A stretch of 50,243 bases of DNA from Candidatus Rokuibacteriota bacterium (GCA_016209385.1 JACQWB010000205.1:1-50243), one strand, 5' to 3'; counted from the stretch's first letter, positions 5,485 through 50,243 are shown. The notes: generated from the sequence alone by a model not told the origin. Numbers and translations are program-made.

Positions 5485-5558
5485 TCGGAGGGGGCCTCGA
5501 CGGCCCCCTCCGAGGCCTCCCCCAGGAATCGCTTGCGCGGGCAAAGCCCGCGCTCGAA
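5485..5558. repeat. Family A palindromic repeat (reverse orientation), directly after a stop codon
   Basis: tcggagggggcctcgacggccccctccga-ggcctcccccaggaatcgcttg-cgcgggcaaagcccgcg-ctcgaa. Confidence 0.92.
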
Positions 5559-5784
5559 GAGGTCCTAGCCCGATCAGTTTCTCATCGCTGGTAAGTTCCT
5601 CACCGGGGCGAGAACGCGCGATCAAAGCCCCGGTAACTGTCTGAAACGACTCGCCTGCCCCGCTTCCTCCTCCCCGGCCCCGAGTCCCAGGTGGTAAAGA
5701 ACTGGCCGGTTCATCCGCGATGACGCCCACCGTCGAACTCGAAAAAGCCTTGGACCATCACCGCTTATCCGATCCCTCCAACCT

Positions 5785-6369: not shown

Positions 6370-7317
6370 ATGCCGGCGCCAGACGACGCTGAGCCGAGGA
6401 TGAAGACGCCGACCCGGCGCGGGTGGCTCGTCGGGGGCATCCGCTGGGGGCTCGACCGGATGCTGTCTGTCGGCTACGGGGTCGTCTACGACTTCATCTT
6501 CGAGCGCTTCGCTCCCTACCTGAGCCTTCGGCGCGAAGTCCTGGCGCTGGTGGAAACCTCCGTCCCTGAGTCGGTTGACCGGCGCGATGTCCACGTGCTG
6601 GACGTGGGATGCGGGCCCGGCAATTTCGCCGTCAGCCTCGCCGAAGCCGGGTTCTCGGTCGTGGGCATCGACCCGTACGCCGCCCTGGTCGAACTGGCCA
6701 GGGAGAAGCGGCGGGCGAAGCACCTTCCGAACCTCGCTTTCCGTCACGCCGACCTCACGATCGGCAACACCTTCAGAGACGGGGCGTTCGACCAGGTCGT
6801 GAACATCCACTCGCTCTACCTCAATCCGACTCCAGACCGACTGCTCAGGGAAACCTACCGGGTCCTGAAGCCCGGCGGCAGCGCGGTCTTCGTGAACTTC
6901 ACGCGGCGGGTCTGGCTGCGGGCTACCTTCCGGGCGGTCAGGGCCCGCGCGGGCCTGAGCGCCGCGCTCCGGTGTCTCCTGTGGCTCCTCCCCAACTCGA
7001 TCTTCGAAGCCACGCGGACCCAGATCGGGCCCCACTACTGGGAGGAGGACGAGTTCTCGCGCAGGTTGCGCGACGCCGGCTTCACAGTGCTGGAGATGCG
7101 ACGGACATTCCTGGACGGGGCGAGCCTCCTGGCGTGGGCCCGGAAGGACAGCGACGAGCCGAGGCGCTTCGGCGCCGGCAGCTTCATCGCCTGCGCCAGC
7201 GACGAGGCGAGGCCCGAGCAGATGAGGCAGAGGCGAGGCCCGAACCGAAGGGAGGTGAGACGTTTCGTGGGGAGTGGATCACAGTGCGTTGAACTCCATG
7301 TCATCTTTGGGACGTGA
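6370..7317 (+). CDS. Class I SAM-dependent methyltransferase; C-terminus extended by family B repeat sequence
   Basis: VLDVGCGPG, GIDP, HADL, FDQVV, YRVLKPGG. Residues after ARKDS are translated repeat DNA. The start could be 6400. Confidence 0.85.
   Translation: MPAPDDAEPRMKTPTRRGWLVGGIRWGLDRMLSVGYGVVYDFIFERFAPYLSLRREVLALVETSVPESVDRRDVHVLDVGCGPGNFAVSLAEAGFSVVGIDPYAALVELAREKRRAKHLPNLAFRHADLTIGNTFRDGAFDQVVNIHSLYLNPTPDRLLRETYRVLKPGGSAVFVNFTRRVWLRATFRAVRARAGLSAALRCLLWLLPNSIFEATRTQIGPHYWEEDEFSRRLRDAGFTVLEMRRTFLDGASLLAWARKDSDEPRRFGAGSFIACASDEARPEQMRQRRGPNRREVRRFVGSGSQCVELHVIFGT
7156..7243 (+). repeat. Family B repeat, in frame in the methyltransferase 3' end
   Basis: gagccgaggcgcttcggcgccggcagcttcatcgcc...cgacgaggcgaggcccgagca...gaggcgaggccc, nearly identical to 36576-36663. 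Confidence 0.92.
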
Positions 7318-8100: not shown

Positions 8101-8646
8101 ATGAGCGCGACAGCAATCGAGGCCAACAGCGTATGCCAGGAGGACGGCGCAGCGGCCAGCGACGGGCTGGTCCGCCTCCGCCTCGGCGGAGCGATCACCG
8201 CCGCGACCGCCCCGCGGCTCCGCAAGCTGATCCGCGGGTACGCGAGGCCGGGAGATGCGCGGCTGCTCGTGGACCTGGAGGGCGTGCCGGCGATCGATGT
8301 CTGCGGGATCGCCGCGCTCCTCGACGGCTTGAAGGTGATCGAAGCCCAGCCGGGCGGTGTTATGATGTTGCGGGTGAACCCGACGGTGCGCCAGGCATTG
8401 AGAAAATCCGGAACGATCACGGCCTTCCGGTTCTGGAACGGTCAAGGGCAGTTCGAGCCGAGTGGCGTCGGCCATGCCGTGTGGCAGGCCCGCCACGAGG
8501 CGAGGCCCGAGTGGCACTTCGAGCCGAGGGGCTCCCGACGAGCCGCAGGCGTGGCAGTTCGAGCCGAGGCGCTTCGGACGAGCCGGAGGCGAGGACAGCG
8601 ACGAGGCGAGACCCGAGTAAACAGCCACGAGGCGAGGCCCAAATAG
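8101..8646 (+). CDS. STAS-domain protein (anti-sigma-factor antagonist-like); C-terminal ~65 aa are family B repeat
   Basis: VRLRLGGAI...LLVDLEGVPAIDVCGIAALL...LRVNPTVRQALRKSG fits a STAS fold. The usual phospho-Ser of DSSG reads DVCG. Confidence 0.8.
   Translation: MSATAIEANSVCQEDGAAASDGLVRLRLGGAITAATAPRLRKLIRGYARPGDARLLVDLEGVPAIDVCGIAALLDGLKVIEAQPGGVMMLRVNPTVRQALRKSGTITAFRFWNGQGQFEPSGVGHAVWQARHEARPEWHFEPRGSRRAAGVAVRAEALRTSRRRGQRRGETRVNSHEARPK
8447..8643 (+). repeat. Family B tandem array (about 3 units)
   Basis: Recurrent ttcgagccgag (3x) and cgaggcgag(g/a)ccc (3x) with different hairpin-forming cores between them. Confidence 0.9.
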
Positions 8647-8648
8647 GT

Positions 8649-9309
8649 GTGATCGAAGCGCAACGGGTGTCGCTCGACGCTCCGGCCGCGGGGCTCGGGG
8701 CGGCGGATCAGGGGATCGTGGTCACGCGGGGGAAACGGGTCGCCCTGCGGACATTCACGCCGGGGGACCTCGTCTACCTCTCGGAGTGGGCGGAGGACCC
8801 CTTCGTCGAGCGGATGGTCGGGAGCGAACTCCTCTATGCCTACAAGTACGTGTACGACAAGCACCCGTCATTCTACGAGGCGTGCCTGACCGATCCGACC
8901 CAGATCATCCTGGTCATCACGGCCAGGGAGTGGTCGAAGCCGGTGGGGCTCGTGCGGCTGTACAACATCCACCTGCTCGAGGGATACGCCTTCCTCGAGA
9001 CGATCATCGCGAACCAGCGGGCCCTGCGCAAAGGATACGGCGTCCAGGCCAGCAAGCTGGTCGGCTACTACGCGATCGACGTGTTGGGGCTGAGACGGAT
9101 CGAGGCGAAGGTCTACGAGTACAACTTCGTGAGCATCAACTCCATGCGTCGAAACGGATTCCGCCAGGAAGGCGTCCTGCGGAAGGCAGGCTTCCAGGGT
9201 GGCCAGTGCTGGGACGTGATCGTGTTCGGAATCCTGAGAGAAGAGATCGAAGAGCAGCGCGGAAAGGACAAGTACCTCCTTCCCCTCGACGGATCCAAGG
9301 GGGACGGAA

Positions 9310-18771: not shown

Positions 18772-18887
18772 TCGGAGGGGGGCCACCCACGCCGACCTCC
18801 CGCGCTGTCGCGCGGGTGTGGCGCGGGTACCCGCCCCTTCCGAACCTCCCCCCAGAACAGCTTGCGCCGGCAAAGCCGGCGCTCGAG
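18772..18887. repeat. Family A composite repeat (reverse orientation)
   Basis: tcggagggggg...gggtacccgccccttccga-acctccccccag...cgccggc-aaa-gccggcg-ctcgag. Confidence 0.85.
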
Positions 18888-18949
18888 CCTGAGGGGGGGG
18901 TCCCCCTAGGTCAGTCGGCGGGGGCCTCGCTTGAACATCAGCTCAGGCC

Positions 18950-20139: not shown

Positions 20140-20523
20140 ACCCGCCCCTTCGGGGGCGGGTACCCGGCCCACGCAATCGGTTTGGGGAGAGGCATCGGAA
20201 GGGGGCGGAGCCCCCCTCCGAGGCTTTCTAGCGCGGGCTTGGCCCGCGCAACCAACTCGGGCCTCGCCTCGGGGCTGTCTTCGCCGGCGGGGCGGCGGCC
20301 GCCCCTCGGCTCGAACCACCATTCCCGGGGGAGGCTCGGAGGGGGCCGTCGAGGCCCCCTTCGAGGGGATCGAGCGCGGGCTTTGCCCGCGCAACCTGTC
20401 CGGGGGGGGGGAGGCATCGGAAGGGGGGCGTCAGCCCCCCCCGAGGGAAGTTTCGAGCGCCGGCTTTGCCGGCGCAATCCGTCGTGGGGGAGGCTTCGGA
20501 AGGGGGGCGGAGCCCCCCTCCGA
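20140..20523. repeat. Tandem array of four family A units with one embedded family B unit (20255-20315)
   Basis: Four cycles of [cgc(g/c)ggc-ttn-gcc(c/g)gcg-caa]-linker-[gggg(g)a(ga)gg-tcgga(a/g)ggggg-loop-ccccc..cga], the first unit being degenerate. Preceded by a perfect acccgcccc-TTCG-ggggcgggt hairpin. Confidence 0.92.
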
Positions 20524-26496: not shown

Positions 26497-26570
26497 TCGG
26501 AGGGGGCCTCGACGGCCCCCTCCGAAACCTCCCCCAGGAATCGGTTGCGCGGGCCAAGCCCGCGCTCGAA
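26497..26570. repeat. Family A repeat (reverse orientation), followed by related hairpin modules to about 26760
   Basis: Near-identical to 5485-5558. The gggtacccgcgccgaaggcgtgggt module at about 26640-26665 is also seen at about 44797-44824. Confidence 0.9.
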
Positions 26571-26811
26571 GGGCATTACTCCGACACATACCTAGCGCCC
26601 CCGTTCCCATACCTCCCCCCATTCCGGTTGAGCGGGCCGGGTACCCGCGCCGAAGGCGTGGGTGTCCCCCTCCGTTTACTAGCGCCCCATCCGATCCGGC
26701 TGCGCCCGGGGGGGACGCCGGTCCGCCTATCGGGACCGGAATCGGGGGTGCGCCCGCCTGCGCGGCCTCGCTATAGTGGCCCCAGTGGCAAACCGAAGCG
26801 CTCTGAACGCT

Positions 26812-35466: not shown

Positions 35467-35897
35467 GCACGCCCTACAGCGCGCTCCTCCGGGTCAGGCG
35501 GGTCGTTGAGCGCGATGCCGAGATCGCCATCGCTCAGGCTCGCCATACCGTGGCGGCGCTCGAGGACGGCCTGGCGACCCTCGGCGTGCTCCGTCAGCGC
35601 TGGGTCGAATCGGCGTTCGCGGCAGCGCCGGGATCCACGGGCGTCCACGGCCAGATCACCGCCATCGAGGCGACCGAGACCGCCCTCGCAGCTTCGCTTG
35701 CCCGGGCGGAAGTCGCCCTGGACGAGGCCCGGGCCGTCTGGACCGAGCGTCACCGGGACCGACGGGTCGCGGAGGAACTCGAGACCCGGACCCTTGAGGA
35801 GCGACGACTTGAGGCGGAGCGTCGGGAGCAGGCCGTGACCGATGACTTGGCGGCCATCCTCCGGCTTCGCGCCACGGGGGTATGGGGTGAAGCGTAG
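35463..35897 (+). CDS. fliJ: Flagellar export protein FliJ
   Basis: Coiled-coil protein after fliI with LLRVRR...E and RREQAVTDD motifs. Confidence 0.8.
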   Translation: MSTPYSALLRVRRVVERDAEIAIAQARHTVAALEDGLATLGVLRQRWVESAFAAAPGSTGVHGQITAIEATETALAASLARAEVALDEARAVWTERHRDRRVAEELETRTLEERRLEAERREQAVTDDLAAILRLRATGVWGEA

Positions 35898-36681
35898 CCC
35901 GCGGTTGCTGCTCGGCGTCGGTACCACTGCGCTGCTCCTGGCCGCCGGCGCCGCAGGCTTCGCGTGGTCGGGGTTCGGCGTCATGATCCTCGCCAAGTTT
36001 CACGAGCCCGGTGCCCCTGTCTCGGCCACGGCGGATGACGCATCCGCACCCCAGCCGTCGCCGGCCTCCCTGCGCCAGGACGAGCTACCGCTTCAAGCGG
36101 AGGAGACCACGACCCGAGACGTCCCGAGCCATCCCACAGCCATCGGGTCTCGCCTCGTGCGACCCGCGGAACCCAGCTTCGCTGGGTGCCCCGGGTGCCC
36201 GCTGCCTCACGGCATGGCCGACGTCCCTCGGCTCGAAAATCCACTCGGGTCTCGCCTCGTGACGGGCCTGCCTCACGGCATGGCCGACGTCCCTCGGCTC
36301 GAAGTTCAACAGCCGCGCCCGGCGCTCGCTCAGGGCGCGCCCGCCCTGGCCGAGATCTACGGATCGATGCGCCCGCAGGAGGCGGCGAGCATTCTCTCCC
36401 GGGTCGAGCCAAAGGTCGCCGCACAGATTCTGACAGAGATGGCGCCCCGAAAGGCCGCCCGTGTGCTCGGGGCCATCGATCCTGCACAGGCCGCAACCCT
36501 GACGAGCGAGATCGTGAGAGGCCCGGTGGAAATTCGAGCCGAGGGGCTCCCGACGAGCCCCGGGCACGGCAGTTCGAGCCGAGGCGCTTCGGCGCCGGCA
36601 GCTTCATCGCCGGCGCCAGCGACGAGGCGAGGCCCGAGCAAATCAGACGGAGGCGAGGCCCAAAAGGAGCCTACCCCGTGA
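35887..36681 (+). CDS. MotE/YlxF/FlbB-like flagellar protein (TM + MgtE-N-like domain) carrying two family B insertions
   Basis: N-terminal TM and LAEIYGSMRPQEAASILSRV...ILTEMAPRKAARVLGAIDP. Sits in the ylxF position between fliJ and fliK. GTG start at 35887. Confidence 0.8.
   Translation: MKRSPRLLLGVGTTALLLAAGAAGFAWSGFGVMILAKFHEPGAPVSATADDASAPQPSPASLRQDELPLQAEETTTRDVPSHPTAIGSRLVRPAEPSFAGCPGCPLPHGMADVPRLENPLGSRLVTGLPHGMADVPRLEVQQPRPALAQGAPALAEIYGSMRPQEAASILSRVEPKVAAQILTEMAPRKAARVLGAIDPAQAATLTSEIVRGPVEIRAEGLPTSPGHGSSSRGASAPAASSPAPATRRGPSKSDGGEAQKEPTP
36143..36303 (-). repeat. Two family B units in reverse orientation, internal to the CDS
   Basis: tcgggtctcgcctcgt...gcctcacggcatggccgacgtccctcggctcgaa occurs twice. 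It is the reverse complement of the 8447-8511 unit type. Confidence 0.92.
36533..36663 (+). repeat. Two family B units at the 3' end of the motE-like CDS
   Basis: ttcgagccgaggggctcccgacgagcc (as at about 8518) plus the 7156-7243-type unit. Confidence 0.92.
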
Positions 36682-38408
36682 TCCCAACTCGCGTAGACCT
36701 CATGTCGCTGATGGACCCAGGACAGTTGAGCGACCCGAGCCCGAGTGCGGTTGAGCCGTCCAGAGATGGCACTTCCGAGGGGTTGCCCGACCCACACGAC
36801 TTCGCGTCCTTGCTCCTCGCCGTTCCAACGCCGGTCGAACCCGCGGCGCTTGCGACTCCGATGCCGGGCGGAGGAAGCCCCGGCGCCGAAGCCGGGTCGC
36901 AGGATCGCTCCCGGCCGCTGACGTCGGGCGTCTACCCTCCGGCACCTCAGACCAGCATGGAGGGTGCGGCTGCAGGGTGGAGTCCGCCGCGCTCCCCGGT
37001 CGGTCGGGCTCCTGCCATCGCGAGCCCAGACGGCGTCGCGGTCACCCAGGTCCTCACCGCCTTAGCCGCTGGCGACCGGGACGCGATTGAAACCCCTCCG
37101 ACACTCGGCACGCCAGCCGCTGCCGCGGCGTCTTCGACGGGCAGATCGGTCGCGCCGGTGATCGACCCGGCACTTCCGGTCGACCGGTCCCCCCGTAGCT
37201 CGGACGCTCCGGCAGCCATCGCCGGCGCCCCGCTCCCCGCTTCGACCGATCGCGGGCTCCCCGGAGGTACGCCGCCAGCGTCCCCTGATGCCGGCCAGCA
37301 CGCCATGAATACCCCTCCGACACTCGGCACGCCAGCCGCTGCCGCGGCGTCTTCGACGGGCAGATCGGTCGCGCCGGTGATCGACCCGGCACTTCCGCTC
37401 GACCGGTCCCCGCGAAGCTCGGAGGCCCCGGCGGCGGTCGCCGCCGACCCTCTCCCCGCTTGGACCGGTCGCGGAGTGCTCGGAGGCACGCCGCCCGCGT
37501 CCCCCGGCGCTGGCGAGCACGGCTCGCCGACCCCGGGTGCCGAGGCCCAAGCTCAGCGCGGCGCTCCGATCGGAGACGCCGTCTCCCGGGATCCCTCAGG
37601 CGGGTCAGCACCTGACGGCCATGCCCATTCGGGCTCTCCGATCGTGCCTCAGACTCTGATCGAAGGACGTTCGCCAGCTCAGCGTCGGCCCTCCGAACCG
37701 CCGCAGGCGATCGTGGCAGAACGGCAGGACAGAGCCCAGGAGGCGCCGGTCCAGCGGATCGCAGCGCCCGTCATCGGTTTCCCCCAAGCGGGATCGCAAC
37801 GGGTCATCCCGACCCAGGCGACTCGGCTCCCGACCGAGGAGCCTGCGCCTCGCCTCCCAACGGAGCTGGGTCTGGACTCCGTCGATGAGCGTGCCGTCCT
37901 GAGCGGCGGTACGCGCGAGATCCAGGTCACCGTCGAGGCCCCGCTCCGCGCCGGACTCCCCGACGAGGCCCACCCGCTTCAGACTCCGGTGCCGACCGCT
38001 GCCGACGCGCCCGCGCTTCCCGTGGATCAGATTGTCCGGGCCGCACGGATCCTCCGGCAGGACGGGCGCACCGAGATGCGCGTCCACCTGGAGCCGCCCA
38101 CGCTCGGCTGGGTGCGCGTGCGCGTGACGGCGAGCCGCGATGCGCTCGCCCTGAACATTGATGCCGAGCGGCCCGAGACCCAGACCCTCCTCAGCCAGGC
38201 GCTCCCGGAGCTTCAAGCGGCCCTGGCGAGTCGCGGGCTCGAGGTCGCCTCGCTGACTGTCCGCGTCGATCTCGATGTCGCCAGACCCCGGAGCGATCCG
38301 GATCGCTCTGCGGAGCGCCCCAGGCGCGCGGAGCCCCGCGATCGCCTCGGGCCGCGCTCCCGCATGACCAGCGCGGGCCCCGCGCCCCGCGTGGATCTCA
38401 CCATCTAG
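36678..38408 (+). CDS. fliK: Flagellar hook-length control protein FliK
   Basis: Long low-complexity P/A/S/T region and C-terminal MRVHLEPPTLGWVRVRV...LSQALPELQAALASRGL...VDLTI. GTG at 36678 overlaps the upstream stop. Confidence 0.9.
   Translation: MIPTRVDLMSLMDPGQLSDPSPSAVEPSRDGTSEGLPDPHDFASLLLAVPTPVEPAALATPMPGGGSPGAEAGSQDRSRPLTSGVYPPAPQTSMEGAAAGWSPPRSPVGRAPAIASPDGVAVTQVLTALAAGDRDAIETPPTLGTPAAAAASSTGRSVAPVIDPALPVDRSPRSSDAPAAIAGAPLPASTDRGLPGGTPPASPDAGQHAMNTPPTLGTPAAAAASSTGRSVAPVIDPALPLDRSPRSSEAPAAVAADPLPAWTGRGVLGGTPPASPGAGEHGSPTPGAEAQAQRGAPIGDAVSRDPSGGSAPDGHAHSGSPIVPQTLIEGRSPAQRRPSEPPQAIVAERQDRAQEAPVQRIAAPVIGFPQAGSQRVIPTQATRLPTEEPAPRLPTELGLDSVDERAVLSGGTREIQVTVEAPLRAGLPDEAHPLQTPVPTAADAPALPVDQIVRAARILRQDGRTEMRVHLEPPTLGWVRVRVTASRDALALNIDAERPETQTLLSQALPELQAALASRGLEVASLTVRVDLDVARPRSDPDRSAERPRRAEPRDRLGPRSRMTSAGPAPRVDLTI
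37092..37529 (+). repeat. 219-bp (73-codon) tandem duplication inside fliK
   Basis: Copies start at 37092 and 37311. The first 87 bp are identical; the remainder is diverged but alignable. Confidence 0.92.
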
Positions 38409-44691: not shown

Positions 44692-44744
44692 CTGCGGAGC
44701 GTACCCGATGACACCTGCCATGTCACGTCACGCTGCTCCAGGGT

Positions 44745-44836
44745 TTCGAGCGCCGGCTTGGCCGGCGCAATCTATCGGGGGGAGGAATCGGAAGGGGCGG
44801 GTACCCGCGCCGAAGGCGTGGGTGGCCCCCCTCCGA
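44745..44836. repeat. Family A repeat between fliQ and fliR, with a module inserted in the loop of hairpin 2
   Basis: ttcgag-cgccggc-ttg-gccggcg-caa...tcggaagggg-[cgggtacccgcgccgaaggcgtgggtgg]-cccccctccga. Confidence 0.9.
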
Positions 44837-49963: not shown

Positions 49964-50111
49964 TTCGAGCGCGTACCCATGCCTCCGGCACACCCCGGCC
50001 TCCGGCCCGGGTACCCGCCCGGCCCGCGCAATTTCACTCGGGCCTCGCCTCGTGGCTCTCCTCGCCTGCGGCTCGTCGGGAGCCCCTCGGCTCGAACTGC
50101 CACCGGGGGAG
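49964..50111. repeat. Composite family A+B repeat truncated by the IS end
   Basis: A-type ...cccgcgcaa, then a reversed B unit (50036-50101), then gggggag. The expected hairpin 2 is replaced by foreign sequence from 50112. Confidence 0.85.
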
Positions 50112-50243
50112 ACTTTCTATGACCCTTGTCAAGAACTTTTTTTTTCACGGTCACGCCGCCCGGCGTAACTGCTGCCGCGCCATGGTCGCCAGGTGGTAGG
50201 TCTCGTCGTATGGCACCTGCCGACTCCACATGACGAAGATGAC
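50110..50243 (-). mobile_element. Right end of a probable IS110-family insertion sequence (continues beyond the window)
   Basis: Minus strand: transposase-like C-terminus, stop, A-run, TTGACA (50132-50127), 15 nt, then CT (50111-50110) joining repeat DNA. No terminal inverted repeat is testable within the window. Confidence 0.7.
50151..50243 (-). CDS. C-terminal 30 aa of a probable IS110-family transposase (partial; absent from the ORF track)
   Basis: Manual translation VIFVMWSRQVPYDETYHLATMARQQLRRAA* resembles the (I/L)xxMW...PYD tail of IS110 recombinases. This is pattern recall, not a database search. Confidence 0.68.
   Translation of the reverse strand, partial: VIFVMWSRQVPYDETYHLATMARQQLRRAA

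Follow-up and report, generated by a model that had tools for sequence, protein, structure and literature searches.

What is the cluster of short repeats at positions 8447-8643 of the 50,243-nucleotide stretch of DNA analysed here (Candidatus Rokuibacteriota bacterium, GCA_016209385.1 JACQWB010000205.1:1-50243; below, the window), and is it best read as DNA that spreads or as a structure that works in RNA? The cluster, which we assign to a repeat called family B, sits between a STAS-domain gene and a GNAT-like gene. A preliminary description, made from the window by itself, had seen in it constant flanks around interchangeable, covarying hairpin cores, and had proposed a combinatorial element assembled from reusable cassettes. 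We find that family B is a high-copy repeat in which every unit folds as one long imperfect hairpin. Our reading, to which we give a rough probability of 60%, is that it is a lineage-restricted, structured extragenic repeat of no described family, similar in kind to repetitive extragenic palindromes (REPs) and bacterial interspersed mosaic elements (BIMEs), and that it would act in sense mRNA.

The window is contig C170 of its source metagenome-assembled genome (MAG), a Rokubacteria assembly from groundwater, 4.57 Mb in 310 contigs with 68% G+C (G000). Family B is recognised by a left flank, TTCGAGCCGAG (L), and a right flank, GAGGCGAG(G/A)CCCRA (R). Each is present three times in 8447-8643, L at 8452, 8518 and 8558, and R at 8497-8510, 8603-8616 and 8629-8642. 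Over the whole window the L motif has 11 matches where 3.2 are expected and the R motif 11 where 1.5 are expected, and none of 100 shuffles reached 11 for either one; ten family B units lie in the window. The source MAG holds 278 exact L and 165 exact R motifs, and 203 L-core-R units by strict flanks or 263 by looser ones, overall about 250-300, in approximately 238 arrays. Nineteen B2 units (one of four subfamilies described below) are identical. The excess of motifs in the window and the hundreds of genomic units indicate that the repeat is real. The preliminary description would have been refuted by few copies elsewhere, or by assignment to a described family with a known mobiliser; instead there are 263 looser units in 4.57 Mb, and neither Rfam nor the literature offers a match. 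Rfam 15 gave nothing at gathering scores over the whole window and nothing at E up to 10 for 8380-8700, and searches of the literature on Rokubacteria repeats and on the flank sequences, full text included, returned chance primer matches only.

Each family B unit is a single imperfect hairpin of 59-65 nt whose two flanks pair with each other as a basal helix. This helix consists of U2·G54, C3-G53, the tandem mismatches G4·A52/A5·G51, G6-C50, C7-G49, S8-S48 and a second tandem (G9·A47/A10·G46). G11-C45 comes next, and position 12/44 is mostly G·A. Above lie a 4-bp covarying helix, in which 13-16 pair with 40-43, a 2-nt bulge (17-18) and a variable apical stem-loop. Outside the helix, units have a conserved 5' leader, RTGGYRG, in which position -4 is G in 98% of units, with 3 nt between leader and helix, and on the 3' side an invariant unpaired CCCGA tail followed by a trailer, GTNRRTY. 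Four subfamilies have the basal helix, the bulge and the helix register in common and differ as follows:

B1: ggNcgTCggccAtgcc-loop-ggcaggcccgNcac
B2: gggctSCcgacgagcc-gca-ggcgaggagagccac
B3: gcgctTCggcgcMggc-agcttcatc-gccKgcgccagcgac (65 nt)
B4: TTCGAGCG-tggcggg-TTC-ggccAtgcc-loop-ggcaggcc-A-cccgcc-G-CGCGAGGCCCGA

The long hairpin is backed by covariation in all four subfamilies. In B1, 94% of cells pair against 91% in shuffles, and pair 14/42 occurs in four types (G-C 20, A-U 15, C-G 12, G-U 9), and this is the paired swap that had been noticed between two copies in the window. B1 and B4 are equal in length, and in their alignment pair 8/48 is split evenly between C-G (15) and G-C (15), pairs 15/41 and 16/40 swap as well, and where B1 has the tandem G·A at 9-10/46-47, B4 has U·G and G-C with the register unchanged. 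The covariation between B1 and B4 therefore fixes the register in which the flanks pair, and rules out the alternative in which TTCGAGCC would pair with the terminal GGCCCGA. For B2, 97% of the cells of the long hairpin pair, and six pairs covary; the hairpin contains four tandem G·A motifs separated by single Watson-Crick pairs, and these isolated pairs covary at 19/39 (C-G 16, G-C 13) and 22/36 (C-G 25, G-C 6). Covariation in B3 at 24/40 (A-T 24, C-G 8) and 16/46 (T-A 34, G-C 3) favours a 9-bp apical stem together with the long hairpin.

These results change the picture of the element in two respects. The flanks are indeed invariant and the interior variable and covarying, but the flanks are not neutral borders, as they pair with each other. 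Likewise the units are structured, reordered and nested as proposed, but the cores are not independent hairpins that could serve as cassettes; they are the interiors of subfamilies B1-B4 of one scaffold. A local hairpin suggested for ggctc-ccgac-gagcc is not supported, being 81% paired, the same as shuffles, without covariation and broken where the sequence varies; its bases belong to the long-range helix of B2. A likeness of GGTTCGAGCC to a tRNA T-arm was dropped by eye, the complementary stem being absent.

The strand that folds is the one that reads from L to R. At paired positions G·U occurs 19 times and A·C four times (p = 0.003), and U2·G54 and all of the G·A pairs become pyrimidine mismatches on the complement. 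Read on this strand, 8447-8643 consists of a B1 unit followed by an outer B2 that encloses an inner B2-type unit, and the window as a whole contains the following units and parts of units:

7153-7217, plus strand: B3-type unit at the 3' end of a methyltransferase open reading frame (ORF), the first two bases of its L flank altered (GACGAGCCGAG)
7218-7243, plus strand: trailer and second (outer) R flank, GAGGCGAGGCCCGA, at 7230-7243
8452-8510, plus strand: complete B1 of 59 nt, with L flank, covarying hairpin and R flank, preceded by the leader AGGGCAG
8518-8550, plus strand: 5' half of the outer B2, L flank and then gggctcccgacgagccgcaggc
8558-8616, plus strand: inner B2-type unit nested in the outer B2, preceded by the leader GTGGCAG
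8617-8642, plus strand: trailer GTAAACAGCCAC and outer R flank (8629-8642), closing the outer B2
20257-20315, minus strand: B2-like unit in the linker of a repeat of a second family, family A (20231-20334)
36143-36237, minus strand: B1-derived unit in which other sequence, about 45 nt long, stands in for the 3' arm ahead of the R flank (36143-36156)
36245-36303, minus strand: complete B1, antisense to and inside a MotE-like ORF
36533-36565, plus strand: 5' half of an outer B2
36573-36637, plus strand: B3 unit of 65 nt nested in that outer B2
36638-36663, plus strand: trailer GCAAATCAGACG and outer R flank (36650-36663), then AAAGGAG and a start codon
50038-50096, minus strand: B2 unit in a family A linker at the end of the window

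A run-on ORF of the STAS-domain gene ends at a TAG stop at 8644-8646. The MotE/MgtE_N-like ORF at 35842-36681 has two reversed B1 units in frame (36143-36303) and ends in the B2/B3 array, and a 3'-arm replacement like that at 36143-36237 is also present on contig C210. Directly after the B2 unit at the window end the sequence is AT-richer (50097-50243).

Five arrangements dominate the arrays of the source MAG: single B2 units (about 44 arrays), single B4 units (43), a B3 unit placed inside a B2 5' half, with a second R flank to close the latter (approximately 30), single B1 units (28) and B1-B1 tandems (6). More than 25 rarer arrangements exist in addition. Arrays keep to one strand in direction (LR, LRLR or LLRR), with mixed strands in 2 of 407 motif loci. 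Cores do recur in new orders, as proposed, but most of the apparent combinations are a few composites that have themselves been amplified, the B2 5' half with B3 about 30 times.

The nesting in family A linkers reported at 20255 and 50036 is real, the minus-strand units being those at 20257-20315 and 50038-50096. Family A (CCTCCCCC...GCGCSGGC) has about 360 copies genome-wide, of which approximately 230 have a linker of 6-12 nt and about 80 have a linker occupied by a B unit, usually B2 or B4; in the window family A lies at 984-1041, 5485-5559, 18814-18888, 20153-20520, 26497-26571 and 44727-44811. Families A and B occur in the same genomes and in the same intergenic habitat, and the reverse complement of the second family A hairpin begins with TTCGAGCG, as does the B4 L flank, a likeness of sequence that hints at a common recognition feature. 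The two differ in that family A is built of two perfect G+C hairpins, GGAGGGGG...CCCCCTCC and GCGCGGGC...GCCCGCGC, and has neither the G·A scaffold nor the R flank.

Most family B units lie in spacers within an operon; the coding strand near each locus was assigned by a codon-position G+C test. Where the genes on both sides run the same way, sense loci outnumber antisense ones 63 to 17 (p = 2e-7), and among stand-alone loci, those outside family A, 43 are sense and seven antisense (86% sense). Co-orientation is commoner with the downstream gene than with the upstream gene. A Shine-Dalgarno sequence and start codon follow the R flank on its 3' side in 46 of 86 stand-alone loci, compared with six in the reverse-side control, and in about 30 of the 86 the Shine-Dalgarno sequence lies within 0-13 nt of the flank. 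On the other side, in 68 of 88 loci the upstream stop codon lies before the element begins, commonly at a distance of 3-30 nt. We found no U-tract after the hairpins, and they are therefore not intrinsic terminators. As to whether replication or transcription causes the orientation bias, the three informative loci all agree with the local gene, a number too small to carry weight.

In a scan of species-representative genomes, the repeat turned up almost only in MAGs of Candidatus Rokubacteria/Rokuibacteriota (Methylomirabilota). Among 251 genomes of the phylum, including 159 of the Rokubacteriales family concerned, the pattern is limited to that one GTDB family and is patchy within it, most genomes having none; the source MAG has 204 copies in this survey, G012 has 50, G175 has 27, and the remainder eight or fewer. 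Other genomes combine the same flanks with different cores, for example CGGCGTCGGCGAGGC-loop-GCGAGCCCGCCGC, also with a CGAG/CGAG tandem G·A. Some sites are occupied across genera. In the source MAG and two other genomes, the same pair of genes has a B1 unit between them, immediately upstream of a transaldolase gene, with identical flanks and compensatory changes in the stem. Sites common to different genera, including those on contigs C102 and C215 (matched by loci L044 and L042), likewise have identical flanks and cores changed in a compensatory manner, and at the C215 site three-unit arrays stand at the same position with differing core types. Within a genus, a single unit in G001 corresponds to a tandem pair in the source MAG, and a plain B2 in G001 to a B2 with a nested B1. 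Family B is thus old, still changing and homogenised within genomes.

Taken as an RNA element, family B would be co-transcribed with operons in the sense orientation, and its hairpin, placed between an upstream stop codon and the next ribosome-binding site, would most likely act as an intercistronic or 5'-UTR (untranslated region) stem-loop. By analogy and from position, likely candidates for its effect are that it could protect mRNA from exonucleases, process mRNA, or insulate the downstream Shine-Dalgarno sequence. Its copy number would grow, we infer, through tandem duplication, insertion into B units and into family A, and amplification of composites.

Several observations weigh against this proposal. 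Nearest-neighbour energies of the units do not differ between the strands, and the z-score of the whole region is modest (-1.9 sense, -0.8 antisense), so that the structural case rests on covariation and not on energy. About 20% of loci are antisense, some of them inside ORFs. The adjacency to Shine-Dalgarno sequences could result merely from insertion into very short operon spacers, and the invariance of the flanks across genera could stem from transposase recognition or gene conversion and not from an RNA function. The sequencing runs that contain the locus are DNA metagenomes, none of them RNA, which leaves transcription and an RNA-level effect as predictions. Finally, no mobilising enzyme was identified in these MAGs, which are fragmented and break at the repeats, such that a repeat-flanked gene may be lost from the bins.

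The main rival holds that family B is a selfish, non-autonomous hairpin transposon of the REPIN or MITE (miniature inverted-repeat transposable element) kind, moved as single-stranded DNA by a transposase that recognises the G·A basal helix with leader and trailer, and that the positional biases reflect tolerated insertions only. We regard this as unlikely, though well short of implausible. Near-identical copies are many, down to the 19 identical B2 units, copy number differs sharply among relatives (from 204 to 50, 27, and 8 or fewer), nested and tandem gains have occurred inside one genus, the single-stranded ends formed by leader and trailer are conserved, and a strand-specific hairpin recalls the substrates of IS200/IS605 and REP transposases. 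As to the terminal inverted repeats and related autonomous IS that mark a MITE, the ends TTCGAGCC and GGCCCGAG are complementary at only 6 of 8 positions in the terminal register, and no parent element was seen. The assembly also leaves room for a missing enzyme. Many contigs of the source MAG start or stop within family B repeats, and in the source samples Logan contigs encoding the identical neighbouring protein end at repeats, so a transposase gene flanked by repeats could be absent from the bins. With Logan contigs aligned to the locus, depth over B1 is about 185 times that of the flanks, and a copy-number spike is seen without clean local polymorphism.

Against selfish spread stands the search for a mobiliser, made with profiles for Y1_Tnp/RAYT (PF01797), integron integrase (TIGR02249) and reverse transcriptase. 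Y1_Tnp/RAYT has no match in the source MAG, G012, G175, G206 or G001; it is present in 32 of the 159 family genomes, nearly all of them free of family B, and the examples read carry unrelated flanking repeats. Reverse transcriptase is absent in the B-rich genomes. Integron integrase exceeds the cut-off in 63 of the 159 genomes irrespective of family B, so is notably common, and it is absent in G012 (50 units), G206 and G001. A full-length integrase gene lies at 25559-26503 of contig C158 in the source MAG (454 bits), with two B1 units about 400 nt upstream in divergent orientation (25036-26503 of C158, equal to 11037-12504 of L058); a second integrase copy is on contig C108, where no B unit is present. 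The preliminary description had advised looking for a co-occurring recombinase or reverse transcriptase, and the outcome is one adjacency, on C158, with RAYT and reverse transcriptase missing from B-rich genomes and the integrase lacking co-distribution. Among 26 pairs of B arrays within 3.5 kb of each other, the enclosed ORFs, which are unannotated, vary in length and strand and include no obvious recurring gene. Neither a target-site duplication nor a clean empty site could be defined, whether from filled and empty family A linkers or from the comparison of the source MAG with G001. In addition, the 86% sense bias of stand-alone loci and the occupancy of sites across genera exceed what a neutral parasite would predict.

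Two observations were made in the course of this search. In G205, G013 and G190 (loci L053-L055) the Y1_Tnp-domain proteins are of about 300 amino acids with a helix-turn-helix-like C-terminal tail, and the gene in G190 is bracketed by its own inverted repeat, GGGGTCAGGTCTTACATTCCGACATTTT, a REP-like system distinct from family B. The integrase gene on C158 is followed by a DinB-like gene.

A bolder extension of the RNA reading and of the DNA one is that the invariant G·A basal helix, the single-stranded leader and the CCCGA-GTNRRT tail form the recognition module of a dedicated factor. Family B might then be a domesticated 'operon punctuation' RNA, with a part in processing or downstream translation and held at the same intercistronic sites across genera, or else it might be what a new kind of hairpin-specific DNA enzyme, distinct from RAYT and from integron integrase, acts on. 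We offer this as speculation and consider it unlikely.

Far less probable is a dedicated cis-regulatory role, with family B as a leader that binds a ligand or protein and serves one regulon. Its place just upstream of a Shine-Dalgarno sequence at many loci, and the position upstream of the transaldolase gene kept in three genera, would suit such a leader; hundreds of copies beside unrelated genes, tandem and nested arrays, about 80 units inside another repeat, the zero copies of most family genomes and the absent Rfam match do not. Neither a functional enrichment among downstream genes nor a specific binding partner was seen.

We give slightly less credence still to the idea that family B encodes peptide modules, whether C-terminal tails and in-frame inserts similar to the RPE elements of Rickettsia, or short coupling ORFs like those of mycobacterial interspersed repetitive units (MIRUs). 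Three ORFs of the window do run into B DNA, one of them with two units in frame, the upstream ORF reads into the repeat in 20 of 88 loci, and stop codons are frequent in the trailers. The entry frames of those 20 are scattered (9/6/5), unit spacing is 62-67 nt and no multiple of three, no frame stops at a consistent place relative to the downstream start codon, and the covariation keeps base pairs and not codons. At 68% G+C, stops are few and chance run-on ORFs are expected; the run-on C-termini in the window are best read as by-products, because the DNA is stop-poor and G+C-rich.

Least credible of all is that the units are attC-like recombination sites of the integron integrase, since, for all that they form strand-specific folded hairpins in which the base is invariant, the tip varies and internal loops and bulges occur, lie in sense after ORFs, have a trailer (GTNRRTY) loosely like the GTTRRRY box and in one case lie about 400 nt from an integrase gene, nearly all of the 63 integrase-bearing genomes are B-free, three B-bearing genomes and the C108 contig break the association from either side, no RYYYAAC/GTTRRRY pairing exists and leader is not complementary to trailer, attC-type core sites were not found at the C158 integrase locus, units run head to tail without an ORF between them and adjoin housekeeping genes such as transaldolase, and we estimate a chance expectation of about 6% for one such adjacency among 238 arrays.

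From 2000 to 29000 of the window, sensor histidine kinase paralogues whose GAF/PAS-like modules are repeated follow one another, and the direct-repeat families D1-D8, D11, D16 and D19 are coding paralogy, not non-coding repeats. Downstream of the flagellar genes, a long Pro/Ala-rich ORF (36186-38408) contains at 37070-37507 a direct tandem duplication of 219 nt with 87% identity; the ORF may encode a FliK-like protein with a duplicated segment.

Family B matters in practice as well as in principle. Together with family A it accounts for many contig breaks in the source MAG, in a group that is uncultured and assembles poorly, and the run-on and interrupted ORFs that it creates will be taken for proteins by annotation pipelines. 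It is a small repeat with a strongly backed structure, in which covarying pairs enclose as many as four tandem G·A mismatches, and with a strong sense bias and some sites common to several genera. Whether such a repeat is a parasite or a host RNA signal is the long-standing question of the REP field, and family B makes it testable. B-rich genomes that have no RAYT or reverse transcriptase, and no link to integrase, point to an undescribed mode of spread.

Among known systems, MIRUs are tandem units of about 50-100 bp in the intercistronic spacers of operons, oriented with the genes and variable in number between strains, and each reportedly contains a small ORF that overlaps at its ends with the stop and start codons of the genes on either side. 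Family B is likewise intercistronic, tandem and oriented with the operon; it has no consistent ORF or frame, however, and its defining feature is a hairpin that covaries. BOX elements of Streptococcus pneumoniae are made of the distinct segments boxA, boxB and boxC in variable number and order, with a stable predicted RNA structure and no encoded transposase. Family B is also modular, with a predicted structure and without an encoded transposase, but the sequences are unrelated, BOX elements lack a G·A-containing basal helix, and the types of family B are variants of one hairpin scaffold. From integron attC sites, which it resembles in its strand-specific hairpin with a conserved base, internal loops, bulges and variable tip and in its sense position 3' of ORFs, it differs in having no R''/R' boxes, no co-occurring integrase and no cassettes between the units of its tandem arrays.

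The closest comparison is with REPs and BIMEs. REPs are 20-40 bp long with an unpaired GTAG or CGTC tag at one end, occur in the spacers of co-directional and of convergent genes, at about 20 bp or less from the upstream ORF, and are thought to be RNA elements (PMC3733652); a RAYT (Y1 transposase) gene is flanked by two inverted REP copies (PMC2817692), while the CGTC-tagged REP superfamily has no dedicated transposase (PMC3733652). Family B is not a member of the REPs, because it has no terminal tag, is about twice as long, shows no alternation or inverted dimers, and has no RAYT in B-rich genomes. Its units measure 59-65 nt, and in place of a terminal unpaired GTAG or CGTC it has the leader RTGGYRG, 3 nt off the helix, which reads GTGG in a minority; the CGTC of B1 (15-18) is internal and half paired (C15 and G16 being paired). 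Where REPINs and BIMEs alternate or form inverted dimers (PMC2817692), B units are head to tail or nested in the same orientation, and where REPINs go with RAYT, the B-rich genomes, as fragmented MAGs, show none. The invariant tandem-G·A basal helix, the strong sense bias and the frequent abutment to a downstream Shine-Dalgarno sequence set family B further apart. The sequence family and its G·A scaffold are undescribed, with no match in Rfam or in full text, but the class, which the preliminary description had not recognised, is one that can be recognised. Like REPs and BIMEs (PMC2817692, PMC3733652, PMC3116915), family B is a high-copy, G+C-rich, imperfect extragenic palindrome, mostly between co-directional genes, near the upstream stop codon and plausibly transcribed. 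It forms mosaics with other motifs, has species-specific sequence at conserved sites and, in common with the CGTC-tagged REPs, comes without a dedicated transposase; in these respects it is a repeat of the REP/BIME kind.

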